Below, piece by piece: positions 34,892 through 43,968 of a stretch of 64,000 bases of DNA. A model generated the notes under the pieces. It searched no databases. It was not told the DNA's origin and was given only the letters and a program-made list of their open reading frames with translations. Position 1 is the stretch's first letter. Every line of letters begins with the position of its first letter. The translations under genes were made by a program, and so were the position numbers. Source of the DNA: Escherichia phage sutha; the sequence record PV245934.1, one strand, 5' to 3'.

Positions 34892-35365
34892 TTATTTGAA
34901 TGATTTGACGTACTGAATAGAACCTTTACTATTCACGAAAGCGATTTTACCATTCTTATTATACATGGTAGCAGTACGCTGATAGCCATAAGTTTGCTTA
35001 CCAGATTGATAACCAACTAATGCGAAATTATCTTCGCCCATTTTATTCTGTTTAGCGCGAATACGTTCATGACCGTGTGCCATAAGAACCTTAGCATCGC
35101 CAGTTGCAATGGATCTACGAGTTTTTTCATCTTCAACTGTATTAACAAAGTCGTCAAATGAATCAAATTTAGCGTGAGATTTATTATACAGTTTTCCATC
35201 TACTGCATAATTGTATCCTTGTACATCCATCTCAACTTCTGTACCATCATCCAATACAGCAGTGATTTTCTGTCCTTTTTTAAATTTCAAAAGATCAGTA
35301 AAAGATTCAGCAATAATTTGAGAATTAATAGCTGCTTCAGTAATAAATTCTTGATATGTTTTCAT
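34892..35365 (-). CDS. internal-protein-like (capsid-targeting-sequence bearing) protein
   Basis: 157 aa; N-terminus MKTYQEFITEA matches T4 IP capsid targeting sequence with L/I-x-E protease site. Confidence 0.6.
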   Translation of the reverse strand: MKTYQEFITEAAINSQIIAESFTDLLKFKKGQKITAVLDDGTEVEMDVQGYNYAVDGKLYNKSHAKFDSFDDFVNTVEDEKTRRSIATGDAKVLMAHGHERIRAKQNKMGEDNFALVGYQSGKQTYGYQRTATMYNKNGKIAFVNSKGSIQYVKSFK

Positions 35366-35380
35366 GTGTATCCTTTAATT

Positions 35381-35698
35381 TTATTCTTTAGGGAAGTTTT
35401 TAGAATATGCATCATAAAGCTTATTTCCAATACGGCGGAAAACTTTAGCCGCAAAACGATTTTCTGGGTTTTTAATCATGATTTGCATCATATAAGTACC
35501 CGCGTCAGAAAGAGCTTCTTCATAGTACCCGTTAATTTCTTTAAGAGTCCTACGTTTACCACCAGGACCATCAACAGTGATTTTCCATTTACCCGTAGAA
35601 GTGCGACTTGGCGGCTCAATTTGTTCAATCCAGATATAACCACCTTCTACACGTTGTCCTGCAGCAGATTCTGCAATAAATTCTTTATAGGTTTTCAT
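35381..35698 (-). CDS. internal-protein-like (CTS-bearing) protein
   Basis: 105 aa; N-terminus MKTYKEFIAES; adjacent to lysozyme e as ipIII/ipII are in T4. Confidence 0.6.
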   Translation of the reverse strand: MKTYKEFIAESAAGQRVEGGYIWIEQIEPPSRTSTGKWKITVDGPGGKRRTLKEINGYYEEALSDAGTYMMQIMIKNPENRFAAKVFRRIGNKLYDAYSKNFPKE

Positions 35699-35733
35699 GT
35701 GTTTCCTTTAAATATTTTAATTAGTAATTGTGA

Positions 35734-35765
35734 ATATACTATCACAGTTTTAGGAGAAAGTAAAC
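35734..35765 (-). promoter_or_regulatory. T4-type early promoter
   Basis: GTTTAC - 18 nt - TAGTAT upstream of IP-like gene. Confidence 0.5.
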
Positions 35766-35769
35766 AACT

Positions 35770-36264
35770 TTATAGATTTTTATACGCGTCCCACGTACCA
35801 GTTCTAAACGTGGCAATGACTCGTTTTGCGCGATTAGGTGTTTGATTATACCATCTGCTTTTAGCTAAGTTAACTGCGGCTTCATCCCAGCGCTTTTGTT
35901 GAAGCATGCGTAAAGAATTAGTAAATCCTGCTACGCCAGTTTCTCCCATTTGGAAAACCATATTAATCAATGCGCAGCGGCGAACAGCATCAAGAGAATC
36001 ATAAACTGGTTTTAATTTAGCATTTCTCAGAATTCCGCGAACAGCAGCATCAACATCCTGATTAAAGAGTTTTTCAGCCTCATCTTTTGTAATTACACCA
36101 TTGCAATTACGCCCAATAGCTTTGTCTAGTTCAGATTTAGCAACACTTAGTGATGGACTTTTAGTAAGTAAATGACCAATGCCAATAGTGTAATAACCTT
36201 CTGTGTCTTTATAGATTTTAAGTCTAAGACCTTCATCTATACGTAACATTTCAAATATATTCAT
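35770..36264 (-). CDS. e: lysozyme (endolysin) gpe
   Basis: 164 aa, [39 protein letters not shown]... T4 lysozyme. Confidence 0.97.
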
Positions 36265-36300
36265 AATACCTCCTAAGTATTTATAGAAGGTATTTATAAA

Positions 36301-36756
36301 TTAAAAGAGGCTGTTCATTATTCGGTAAAGTGAAGGACCCATCACATATTGCCACTGGGTACGAGGAATAAGAGCAAAAGCGTCCATCTCTGGAATCATA
36401 ACGCCATCTTTATTTTCAAAATAAGACTCACAATGGCAATTTCTAAACATCTCATGCTCTACTGGAATCGTATAATAAAACAACTGTAAGTCTTTATTAC
36501 TAGAATATTTAAATACACCTAGGTCTTCTAGAAGGTCTGGATTATAATTGCTAAAGCCAGTCTCTTCTAAGCATTCTCTTTTTGCAGCTTCCAGTGCATT
36601 CAAATCAAAACTTTCTACGCGGCCCTTTGGAATATCCCAGCGATGTGCTATCATTCCGGGCTTACGAGAACCAGTAACTCGTCCCATAAATAAATCTTTA
36701 TCTTCTGTCATAAAGATAATACCAGCTGATAGTGTTTTCATTTTAATTTCCTGCAT
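36301..36756 (-). CDS. nudE: Nudix hydrolase NudE (e.1)
   Basis: 151 aa; Nudix box GRVESFDLNALEAAKRECLEETG. Confidence 0.85.
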   Translation of the reverse strand: MQEIKMKTLSAGIIFMTEDKDLFMGRVTGSRKPGMIAHRWDIPKGRVESFDLNALEAAKRECLEETGFSNYNPDLLEDLGVFKYSSNKDLQLFYYTIPVEHEMFRNCHCESYFENKDGVMIPEMDAFALIPRTQWQYVMGPSLYRIMNSLF

Positions 36757-37226
36757 TCAGTGATAAAGTTATTTAAATTTTGAGTATATTTCTTTTCATC
36801 AAAAATCTTTTGCTGCCTACGTAACCGCCATGGCATTTCAATGAACACGCACCATATTCCTGATAGTACTGCTGCTGTAAAAATATTAACAAGTATAATT
36901 AAAAGAATCCAATCTTCCGTTCTGCCTACTGGACTTTCTCCAAAGAAGCAAAATACAAATGATGTCACAGGAAAACTAATGATATACCACAGAATAACCT
37001 TCTTATCTGTGAACCAATCAGCGTTCGTTAATTTAGCGCGACCATTATAAATACACACGAATTTATCATCTGTTGCAGTAGATGGCTTAACTGGTTGATA
37101 TCCCATTCTAAACTCCCTAATTAATCGTTTCTTTGTATCTTCAGAACAGCCGCTCCAGTCAACTCTATCGACTGAAATGCCATCGTCCCCATCATCTAAA
37201 TCATACCAGCGAGTTTTTAAAATCAT
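36738..37226 (-). CDS. membrane protein (162 aa)
   Basis: TM segments VILWYIISFPVTSFVFCFF and ILLIILVNIFTAAVLSGIWCVFI. Confidence 0.45.
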   Translation of the reverse strand: MILKTRWYDLDDGDDGISVDRVDWSGCSEDTKKRLIREFRMGYQPVKPSTATDDKFVCIYNGRAKLTNADWFTDKKVILWYIISFPVTSFVFCFFGESPVGRTEDWILLIILVNIFTAAVLSGIWCVFIEMPWRLRRQQKIFDEKKYTQNLNNFITECRKLK

Positions 37227-42608: not shown

Positions 42609-42609
42609 G

Positions 42610-42682
42610 CTGGGAATAAAGGACTCGAACCTTTGCATCTAGCAGTCAAAGTGCTATGCCTTACCAACTTGGCTAATTCCCA
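42610..42682 (-). tRNA. tRNA-Gln (anticodon UUG)
   Basis: Acceptor TGGGAAT/ATTCCCA, anticodon loop CTTTGAC, CCA not encoded; first gene of cluster as in T4. Confidence 0.85.
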
Positions 42683-42779
42683 ATTATTAACAAAGGCTCT
42701 CAAGCAAGAACCCTTGATGATAGAGGGTATTAATCAGTGCGATATGAGTTAATAATAACAAATAATTCTTAAAGCATAT

Positions 42780-43073
42780 TTACCATTTATGATAATACAT
42801 GTTTACGATGCATTCAAGACCCAAAGGATTCTTGAAAATATCATATTCAAGAGGACCTTTTTCTGTTTCAATAAAGAAATCAAAGTTAACTGTGTTAAAT
42901 TTACGGTCTTCCTTAACTAATTTAACCTGAGAAGATGAACGGTCAATATAAACCTTTTCAACTTCAAAGTATGTTAAAATGCCATAATCATCAATCAAGG
43001 CTTTAGCCGCGTCTTGATCATATTTATATCCATTTTCAATGGATGATACTTTCGCGTAAAGAATCATTATCAA
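42780..43073 (-). CDS. hypothetical protein (97 aa)
   Basis: Minus-strand ORF. Confidence 0.45.
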   Translation of the reverse strand: MIMILYAKVSSIENGYKYDQDAAKALIDDYGILTYFEVEKVYIDRSSSQVKLVKEDRKFNTVNFDFFIETEKGPLEYDIFKNPLGLECIVNMYYHKW

Positions 43074-43450
43074 CCTTCATCAACAATAGTATGCGTATTG
43101 GCATTTACAATTTGCCACCAATCAAAGCGATTAGAACCATACATCAGTTTGTTTTCATTTTCTTTGATAATATCACGGAGTTCATCTTCAGTGGCGGCTT
43201 TCGCGATTAAATCAGCATATCCACCACGAGGATAATAATTATCACCTGCAAAAAGTAAAAAGTTTGGTTTAATGTTATTGAACTCTTCAAGAGTAATAAC
43301 TTTTCCTGACGGTTGAACAATCTCTACATATTTATATCCCAATTTTTGAGCAGCATCTACTGCTTCAAGCAAAGTATCATGAGCCCATCCAATTTGACAA
43401 CCTGGCTTTTCAGATGGATTAGCCTGATAATCCGCATACACTTTGTACAT
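43070..43450 (-). CDS. hypothetical protein (start placed at Met-14, 126 aa)
   Basis: ORF; AGGTGA SD before MYKVYADY...; longer track start would overlap upstream ORF. Confidence 0.45.
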   Translation of the reverse strand: MYKVYADYQANPSEKPGCQIGWAHDTLLEAVDAAQKLGYKYVEIVQPSGKVITLEEFNNIKPNFLLFAGDNYYPRGGYADLIAKAATEDELRDIIKENENKLMYGSNRFDWWQIVNANTHTIVDEG

Positions 43451-43451
43451 T

Positions 43452-43637
43452 CTATTCACCTTTAGAAATTTTATCCATAACGATAGCAATTAAACCAATT
43501 AAAAATGCTACTACAAGTGAAAACACATTTTCTGCTGTAGTTAATAATCCGCATATAAATCCAACAAACATTGAAAAACTAAAAGCGGAAGCAGAAATTG
43601 CAATAGCAACATTTCGAATTAATTCACAACGTTTCAT
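43452..43637 (-). CDS. small membrane protein (61 aa)
   Basis: Two hydrophobic segments; GAGGAG SD; directly downstream of early promoter. Confidence 0.45.
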   Translation of the reverse strand: MKRCELIRNVAIAISASAFSFSMFVGFICGLLTTAENVFSLVVAFLIGLIAIVMDKISKGE

Positions 43638-43665
43638 TTTATTCTCCTCAGTAGTTGATAGGGTA

Positions 43666-43695
43666 ATAATATCACTACCCTATCTAAAAGTAAAC
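43666..43695 (-). promoter_or_regulatory. T4-type early promoter embedded in palindrome (PeSL-like)
   Basis: GTTTAC - 18 nt - TATTAT; -10 flanked by ATAGGGTA...TACCCTAT. Confidence 0.55.
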
Positions 43696-43968
43696 TCATT
43701 TTAAATAAATTGCGTATTTTTTATAGCCACCAGGCTCGTGTCGAAGACCCTTATCATTAGCAAAACGCTCAATGTTGTTAATTTGATTCTGGTCAAGTTC
43801 AGAGATGTCAAACACGAAATAGTTACGTTTGTTACCAACTGTTACATAGTCAGTTAAATCAATACCATATAGGTAATTGATGTTATCAATCATAGTCTTG
43901 ACAGCTTTGCTAATTTTTACTTCTTCATTAAGAGCAGATTCAACGATAAACTCTTTAAATGTTTTCAT
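43696..43968 (-). CDS. internal protein I-like (CTS-bearing) protein
   Basis: 90 aa; N-terminus MKTFKEFIVESALNE; position upstream of 57B as T4 ipI. Confidence 0.6.
   Translation of the reverse strand: MKTFKEFIVESALNEEVKISKAVKTMIDNINYLYGIDLTDYVTVGNKRNYFVFDISELDQNQINNIERFANDKGLRHEPGGYKKYAIYLK

Follow-up and report, generated by a model that had tools for sequence, protein, structure and literature searches.

Do four short open reading frames (ORFs) in the genome of Escherichia phage sutha, whose products share an N-terminal leader of about ten residues, encode internal proteins (Ips) of the kind that phage T4 carries inside its head, and if so, are any of them new? ORFs A–D (Table 1) are found within the 64,000-nt stretch analysed here (PV245934.1, referred to below as the window), and an initial annotation had read the leader as a T4-type capsid-targeting sequence (CTS) placed in front of unrelated bodies, suggesting that divergent Ip cargo was a natural place for new anti-defence functions.

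We put the probability that the four are ip genes of a T-even-type phage, each made of a conserved 5' module (promoter, ribosome-binding site (RBS) and about ten CTS codons) joined to an unrelated cargo domain, at roughly 80%. By sequence comparison A is Ip4, B is a member of the Ip10 family and D is Ip9, names which already exist for identical or near-identical sequences in GenBank, and the suggestion of an anti-defence role, though reasonable, is not new, as earlier literature had established the leader, the hyper-variable cargo and also the anti-defence reading. Since these families have been named and the hypothesis has been published and partly tested, the window adds nothing for A, B and D; what is new is the RB32ORF133c/phrog_2280 family, to which ORF C belongs, and a locus-mate found in other phages, both of which are candidate Ips to be listed.

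A common leader on four unrelated bodies

ORFs A–D were recovered on the minus strand at the positions given in the initial annotation, with products starting MKTYQEFITEA (A), MKTYKEFIAES (B), MKSYAQFLNEVA (C) and MKTFKEFIVES (D), and each is preceded by an RBS-like AGGA or AAGGA 9–11 nt upstream. A six-frame translation of the window contains the pattern MK[ST][YF]..F[LI].E four times, in just these ORFs, and it was seen 0 times in 200 shuffles. In the CTS of T4 IPIII, targeting depends on residues 4 and 7 and processing by the gp21 protease on residues 8 and 10, and the first ten residues are sufficient to load proteins into the prohead core (PMC9026906). All four leaders have an aromatic residue at position 4, F7, I or L at position 8 and E10 (A, B and C combine Y4 with F7, and D combines F4 with F7 like T4 IPI), and the L/I-x-E cleavage motif is present at residues 8–10 in each case (ITE in A, IAE in B, LNE in C and IVE in D), with a second site in A (IAE20, residues 18–20) and in C and D (LNE15 in both, residues 13–15). 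The description of the leader as a T4 IP-type CTS with L/I-x-E sites is therefore supported, and as the critical positions are satisfied in all four proteins, we infer that they would be loaded, trimmed after E10 and injected. The mature forms predicted from these sites are of 147 or 137 amino acids (aa) for A (cut after E10 or E20; isoelectric point (pI) 9.1–9.3), 95 aa for B (pI 9.6), 147 or 142 aa for C (pI 9.2–9.3) and 80 or 75 aa for D (pI 6.5–8.2).

When the leaders were compared with MKTYQEFIAE using a plain BLOSUM62 score, A and B both reached 42, D reached 34 and C reached 25, with the best chance N-terminus in the window, MKHYEEYMSQ from an out-of-register start in gene 3 and without F7 or E10, reaching 24. 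We rejected this simple score as proof of the C leader given that a chance N-terminus does nearly as well, and because it is weak overall, the support for this leader comes from the four critical positions (Y4, F7, L8 and E10) and from its context.

The bodies behind the leaders are mutually unrelated, as had been claimed, with no significant BLASTP pair among A–D or T4 IPI, IPII and IPIII once the first 12 residues had been removed (best E = 0.04 in this 7-sequence database). The alignment with the T4 proteins proposed in the initial annotation gave no significant BLASTP match either, and hhalign comparisons of the C and D family profiles with IPI and IPIII aligned the leader only; a 41-column hhalign match between C and IPII (29% probability) was partly leader-driven and we did not accept it as homology. 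The view that the bodies are not highly similar to known T4 IPs therefore holds literally, but three of them are those of named Ips from other phages (Ip4, Ip10-type and Ip9). A sequence search of solved structures with all four proteins returned no meaningful match and no sequence or fold similarity to IPI* or any other solved structure, and Pfam and NCBIfam searches found only DUF7412 in ORF A, with all other matches far below the cut-off.

The window is, judging from its sequence, part of a mosaic Tequatrovirus (T4-like) genome (the closest record shares 95% identity over 90% of the region, which 1137 phage records match) and the T4 gene order is kept, running from vs.8 through two ip genes, e, nudE, e.2–e.8, an rnaC/D-like RNA, the tRNAs, trna.2–4 and a further ip gene to 57B, 57A and gene 1. 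ORFs A and B fill the T4 ipII/ipIII slot adjoining the lysozyme gene e and D fills the ipI slot adjoining 57B, which places these three in one or other of the two recognised ip loci (adjoining e, or between trna.4 and 57B). ORF C is in neither, and sits between e.8 (39813–40130) and the rnaC-like region, at a position without a gene in T4.

Table 1. Positions of ORFs A–D and of the associated modules, promoter and repeats in the window (slashes mark predicted cleavage sites).
Feature	Coordinates	Strand	Description
ORF A	34892–35365	-	157 aa, Ip4 orthologue; phrog_3155 'internal virion protein', Pfam DUF7412
ORF A CTS codons	35336–35365	-	MKTYQEFITE
ORF B	35381–35698	-	105 aa, Ip10/RB69ORF124c family; phrog_3966 'unknown function'
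e–B intergenic 5' module	35699–35769	-	early-type promoter (GTTTAC..N18..TAGTAT) and RBS; homologous to T4 ipIII 5' module
Downstream copy of 35-nt direct repeat	40280–40314	-	same hairpin as the upstream copy, immediately past the ORF C stop
ORF C	40319–40792	-	157 aa, RB32ORF133c/phrog_2280 family ('unknown function'); leader MKSYAQFLNE/VALNE/
Late-promoter box TATAAATA (T4 type)	40832–40839	-	47 nt upstream of the ORF C start
Upstream copy of 35-nt direct repeat	40837–40871	-	rnaC-terminator hairpin AGCCCCGACCGAAAGGTTGGGGCT, then T-run
ORF D	43696–43968	-	90 aa, Ip9 orthologue; phrog_7673 'internal head protein'; leader MKTFKEFIVE/SALNE/
ipI-locus 5' module	43947–44040	-	early-type promoter with stem-loop, RBS and first 22 nt of the D coding sequence (MKTFKEF)

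Named families and the exchange of cargo

Named Ips outside the T4 set include Ip4 (T2, RB70 and RB32), Ip9 (RB15, K3 and RB32) and Ip10 (phage Pol, VR7 and RB69ORF124c), and it should be noted that we have taken the original definitions (the Repoila et al. 1994 series) second-hand from GenBank notes and reviews. ORF A shares 100% identity over 157 aa with Ip4/IpIV in about 290 phage records (it is annotated as such in JK1, PP01 and RB32, where the record describes the counterpart as 'similar to T2, RB70 Ip4'), and has strong matches to phrog_3155 (E = 6e-102) and DUF7412 (E = 6e-96). ORF B is 98% identical to a hypothetical protein of Bas39, 93.5% identical to RB69ORF124c and 72% identical over 99% of its length to the 'putative Ip10' of VR7; the VR7 annotation equates RB69ORF124c with the Ip10 of phage Pol, and our comparison was made through these proteins. 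ORF D is 82% identical to the Ip9 of RB15 (UniProt Q38376) and 84% identical to that of RB32 (phrog_7673, E = 2.5e-54), and its body was modelled by AlphaFold2 (AF2) as a small alpha/beta domain (predicted local distance difference test score (pLDDT) of 86). In tblastn searches A was found in 470 phage records, B in 189 and D in 182, and the exact ORF B sequence was absent from a collection of 15 billion proteins. A literature search on Ip4, Ip9 and Ip10 produced nothing relevant.

T2 also carries an Ip4 of the ORF A family, and we note that the T2 record (AP018813, 4430–4903) refers to this gene, whose first 32 residues are those of ORF A, as a 'valyl tRNA synthetase modifier', and that many nearby labels in the same record look mis-transferred (e.g. 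'major capsid protein' on a 249-nt ORF). The denV gene, located between ipII and vs.8 in T4, is missing from the ORF A locus and from the whole window (tblastn), and the sequence past the ORF A stop joins the T4 denV–vs.8 intergenic region directly (93% identity). The adjacent vs.8 gene appears to be split (34211–34862, minus strand), with T4 Vs.8 residues 1–32 matching 34862–34767 and residues 26–219 matching 34798–34211 in another frame, and these different reading frames suggest either a frameshift or an alternative start.

The limits of T4 homology indicate how the genes have been put together. At the e-proximal locus, 84.6% identity with T4 starts at the 3' end of e and continues over the first 40 nt of ORF B, and the segment from the B stop to 32 nt into A is a 91% match to the T4 ipII 5' module. 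At the ipI locus, T4 identity is 98.8% from 57B to 43947, the next 271 nt (43676–43946) are unrelated, and identity resumes at 98.2% from 43675, some 21 nt past the D stop. As homology stops after the first 22 nt of the D coding sequence and the first 40 nt of that of B, the junctions of the swapped segments lie inside or just after the leader codons, and this is consistent with the finding of Ip9 bodies behind either a MKTFKEF or a MKTYQEF leader. The early-promoter/stem-loop region is repeated on both sides of ORF D (about 80% identity over 84 nt).

Leaderless stand-alone homologues of the Ip9 body (72–74 aa, about 50% identity) were found in a Kagunavirus (OQ696342, 1507–1725) and in Seuratvirus KS_A3 (PP627278, 1492–1716), and these siphophage proteins align with D from residue 17–19 onwards, close to the second predicted cleavage site (LNE15). 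Going by these alignments, ORF D directly illustrates the capture of a pre-existing accessory domain by the leader, and is a clear case of cargo recruitment in which a stand-alone siphophage gene has been fused behind a CTS. The KS_A3 copy is annotated as an 'internal head protein', and because it has no capsid-targeting leader this label looks like an annotation transferred from the T-even family.

ORF C and the e.8–rnaC slot

ORF C was found in 511 phage records (tblastn) and its exact sequence is that of ULA51825.1 from phage vB_EcoM-RPN226. The family is described as 'hypothetical' or 'uncharacterized' wherever it is named (we checked names from three protein clusters with 405 members, plus 30 records taken at even steps through the ranked 511), and the RB32 curators, who had named Ip4, Ip5, Ip7 and Ip9, referred to the C orthologue RB32ORF133c only as a 'hypothetical protein, flanked by 34 bp imperfect direct repeat'. 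We found no recognition anywhere of the RB32ORF133c/phrog_2280 family, or of the e.8–rnaC slot, as an internal-protein locus. The family is small, with an exhaustive profile search finding 11 matches in 1.84 billion representatives, and so has no link to any larger family. Divergent homologues retain the leader signature (MLKFNEFLAE, MLEYSEFLKE, MKFKEFLIE and MISFNEFV..ITE) while their bodies drift, and some close alleles start MKTYNEFLNE. The AF2 model of C (mean pLDDT of 73) has a low-confidence leader followed by a well-predicted three-helix N-domain (residues 18–71), a K/P/A-rich linker and a long C-terminal helical hairpin, and both predicted cleavage sites precede the folded domain and are within the low-confidence segment. 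On the strength of these sequence features we propose the C family as a further, probable Ip.

In a number of chimeric proteins, unrelated sequence is attached to a single part of the C family, either the N-domain or the C-terminal helix. One of them combines a trna.3-like protein with the final 31 residues of C, another has a NudE-like C-terminus behind the N-domain, and such proteins suggest frequent illegitimate recombination, or assembly chimeras, around the locus.

ORF C is part of a compact cassette in which the TATAAATA box, RBS, coding sequence and stop are placed between two copies of the 35-nt repeat 557 bp apart. T4 has a single rnaC terminator hairpin (AGCCCCGACCGAAAGGTTGGGGCT plus T-run) followed directly by GGTATCTAAGCC..., so the C cassette is a precise 557-bp indel relative to T4. 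There is likewise one hairpin copy in each of T2 and T6, and none of these three phages has a CTS gene in the e.8–rnaC slot, which is probably why the literature speaks of 'the two Ip loci'. The same cassette layout is found in Bas39, Bas37 and RB32, with the TATAAATA box at -44 to -47, and of the 109 minus-strand ORFs in the window that are 60 aa or longer, only 4 are preceded by this box within 130 nt. For B and D, only early-type promoters inherited from the T4 ipIII and ipI modules were seen within 220 nt, and late read-through into them from the TATAAATA boxes upstream of e (36285 and 36298) and within gene 1 (45101) is possible. The C cassette would be self-contained and transcribed late, and could be gained or lost by recombination between the duplicated terminator hairpins.

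In Bas37 and in the Mosigvirus Bas46 the C orthologue is accompanied in this slot by a second CTS gene, whose 187-aa product starts MKTYAEFLTEA. This second gene is bas37_0243 in Bas37/KarlGJung (MZ501089, 9029–9592, minus strand), for which there is no homologue in the window (tblastn), and a possible homology with C over 25 C-terminal columns (hhalign, 37% probability) was not accepted. It is listed as 'Essential' in the published HIDEN-SEQ table, with 1 of 48 TA sites hit and approximately no reads in every host, which is unusual for an internal protein.

Taken together, these observations allow a tentative reading, which we hold to be slightly short of an even bet, in which the e.8–rnaC slot is a third and unlisted ip locus with arrayed CTS cassettes that are bounded by terminators, C being the most frequent of them (about 510 records), and in which C would be injected to target a host defence beyond the GmrSD subtypes countered by Ip1–3. 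If this were true, the bas37_0243 family would imply a need for some CTS cargo even when the host is laboratory K-12. Screens of just 'the two Ip loci' miss a cassette site that is present in about 45% of the phage records matching the region.

Elsewhere in this part of the window, the T4 homing endonuclease gene segB is replaced by a 184-aa ORF with a T5orf172/MUG113 domain (41154–41708, minus strand; Pfam E = 1e-8), which is found between the rnaC/D-like region and tRNA-Arg; the sole segB-like tblastn match in the window is well away from here, at about 13266–13548. Ten tRNA genes follow (41730–42682, minus strand: Arg, Asn, Tyr, Met-CAT, Thr, Ser, Pro, Gly, Leu and Gln) compared with eight in T4, the additional Asn and Tyr tRNAs being found in T2 and the Bas phages as well.

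Predicted role, alternatives and comparison with known systems

In the mechanism we propose, the leader would dock the pro-protein onto the scaffolding core during prohead assembly, and the gp21 prohead protease would cut after the Glu of L/I-x-E at residue 10 and possibly also at residue 15 or 20. The mature cargo would then remain in the head with the DNA and be ejected into the next host, where it could act ahead of phage gene expression, most likely by specifically inhibiting one of the modification-dependent (type IV) restriction enzymes. By analogy with T4, in which about 360 copies of each IP are packaged and ejected with the DNA (PMC9026906), we think it very likely that A, B and D are packaged Ips, and for C we lean towards the same with distinctly less assurance; all four would be cleaved and ejected in this way. 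That any given one of the four might prove to be a type IV restriction inhibitor we would rate at even odds, again from the T4 precedent.

This precedent is substantial. The T-even IPs have been described as diverse defence proteins with only the CTS in common (Rao & Black 2010, PMC3012670, citing Repoila 1994), and each of T4 Ip1, Ip2 and Ip3 inhibits a distinct GmrSD subtype without cross-protection (Silas et al. 2025, PMC12373910). T4 requires IPIII on ECOR17, and host-expressed IPIII without the CTS still rescues infection (PMC9391042). Bas37_0260, a CTS protein from the ipI locus of Bas37, has been reported to protect against McrBC (2025 HIDEN-SEQ preprint, 10.1101/2025.11.20.689424), and this shows that Ip targets extend beyond GmrSD. 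Its length (77 aa) and first 32 residues are those of the product of a T6 gene noted as 'Ip6' (MZ501089, 13554–13787 and MH550421, 8017–8250, respectively), and it is therefore probably the long-named Ip6. As injected Ips arrive with the DNA before phage genes are expressed, they can serve as a first counter-measure. Wherever the function of a T4 Ip is known, it is to block one particular type IV restriction enzyme, so that any Ip still to be characterised offers a probe for a host defence and is a host-range determinant for therapeutic T-even phages.

A number of points weigh against reading A–D as packaged anti-defence Ips. The genes for gp21 and the core proteins gp22, gp67 and gp68 are outside the window, which stops about 13 kb before gene 21 on the T4 map, although they are to be expected in this phage since it is a Tequatrovirus. 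In the searchable literature we came across no virion proteomics covering any of these four families, fold searches yielded no functional lead, and a GmrSD target for Ip4, Ip9 or Ip10 is not established. The remaining points concern ORF C, and would also fit with it not being packaged at all, in which case it would be a late cytoplasmic accessory gene with a CTS likeness that arose by chance, or was leader DNA kept as a recombination handle. On raw similarity the C leader hardly exceeds the best chance match (25 compared with 24), but C has all four critical positions and the chance decoy is without F7 and E10. Frameshifted or truncated C alleles occur in some phages, yet the leader signature is kept in strongly diverged homologues, which is unexpected for a neutral relic, and the MKTYNEFLNE alleles are nearer to the canonical leader. 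No curator has called C an Ip, including the RB32 annotators who named four others, and the literature refers to just two loci, but the neighbouring cassette in the C slot has a near-canonical leader of its own (MKTYAEFLTEA). In the part of the HIDEN-SEQ data covered here, the C orthologue bas37_0244 was non-essential (in the Bas37 transposon library 29 of its 34 TA sites were hit) and had no fitness effect in three of six host comparisons, those examined (log2 fold changes of -0.11, -0.30 and -0.14; adjusted p = 1). Set against this, the dedicated late promoter of C fits the timing of head assembly, and its predicted mature form is basic like T4 IPII and IPIII. We regard a cytoplasmic role for C as unlikely, if still worth bearing in mind.

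A second alternative is that the proteins are packaged but mainly structural, acting in charge neutralisation, the organisation of packed DNA or prohead core assembly, and are not specific inhibitors. This would suit the basic mature forms of A, B and C (pI 9.1–9.6), but mature D is near neutral and its body is also a stand-alone gene in siphophages which do not have a T4-type head. The high copy number in T4 heads (about 360 per IP), and the aberrant head assembly seen in IPIII-minus and triple-IP mutants (PMC9026906), also point in this direction, as does the 'Essential' status of bas37_0243 in Bas37 (1 of 48 TA sites hit), which is unexpected for a purely host-specific inhibitor, and the result that ten ip genes gave no new GmrSD inhibition. 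However, the bodies of A–D have no common sequence or predicted fold, and ip genes are freely swapped or lost among close relatives, with T2, T4, T6, Bas37 and the window all having different sets. In addition, each of the three T4 IPs is directed at a specific restriction enzyme, and IPIII is active without the CTS when supplied by the host. We consider a mainly structural role to be improbable, and prefer the reading of A–D as ip genes whose exchangeable cargo may act against host restriction. Chance in AT-rich sequence can be dismissed for practical purposes, as although the low G+C content of the window (about 35%) gives many spurious ORFs, the motif was found four times against none in 200 shuffles, and A–D are intact in 180–510 phage records each, have an RBS at -9 to -11 and are in syntenic ip slots.

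The closest comparison is with the T4 Ips, which have the same leader of about ten residues with an L/I-x-E gp21 site, occupy the same slots as A and B and as D, and have 5' modules which are 84–99% identical at the DNA level; A–D are also small and mostly basic like the T4 proteins. They differ in that the cargo is unrelated (BLAST and hhalign), the C slot is empty in T4, and targets are known for Ip1–3 (the three GmrSD subtypes) and none are known for A–D. Bas37_0260 shares its leader and cassette logic with this group and its ipI locus with D, and differs in having no sequence similarity to A–D and no homologue in the window (tblastn). The named non-T4 Ips are found at the same loci as A, B and D with no substantive difference, other than that D in the window has the ipI-type MKTFKEF leader and most Ip9 alleles have MKTYQEF. 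The term PeSL denotes an early promoter combined with a stem-loop. PeSL mobile cassettes of T4-type phages (PMC2839356, PMC4122927) are likewise small accessory genes flanked by repeated regulatory motifs that serve as recombination sites, and the C cassette differs from them in combining its hairpin with a late promoter.

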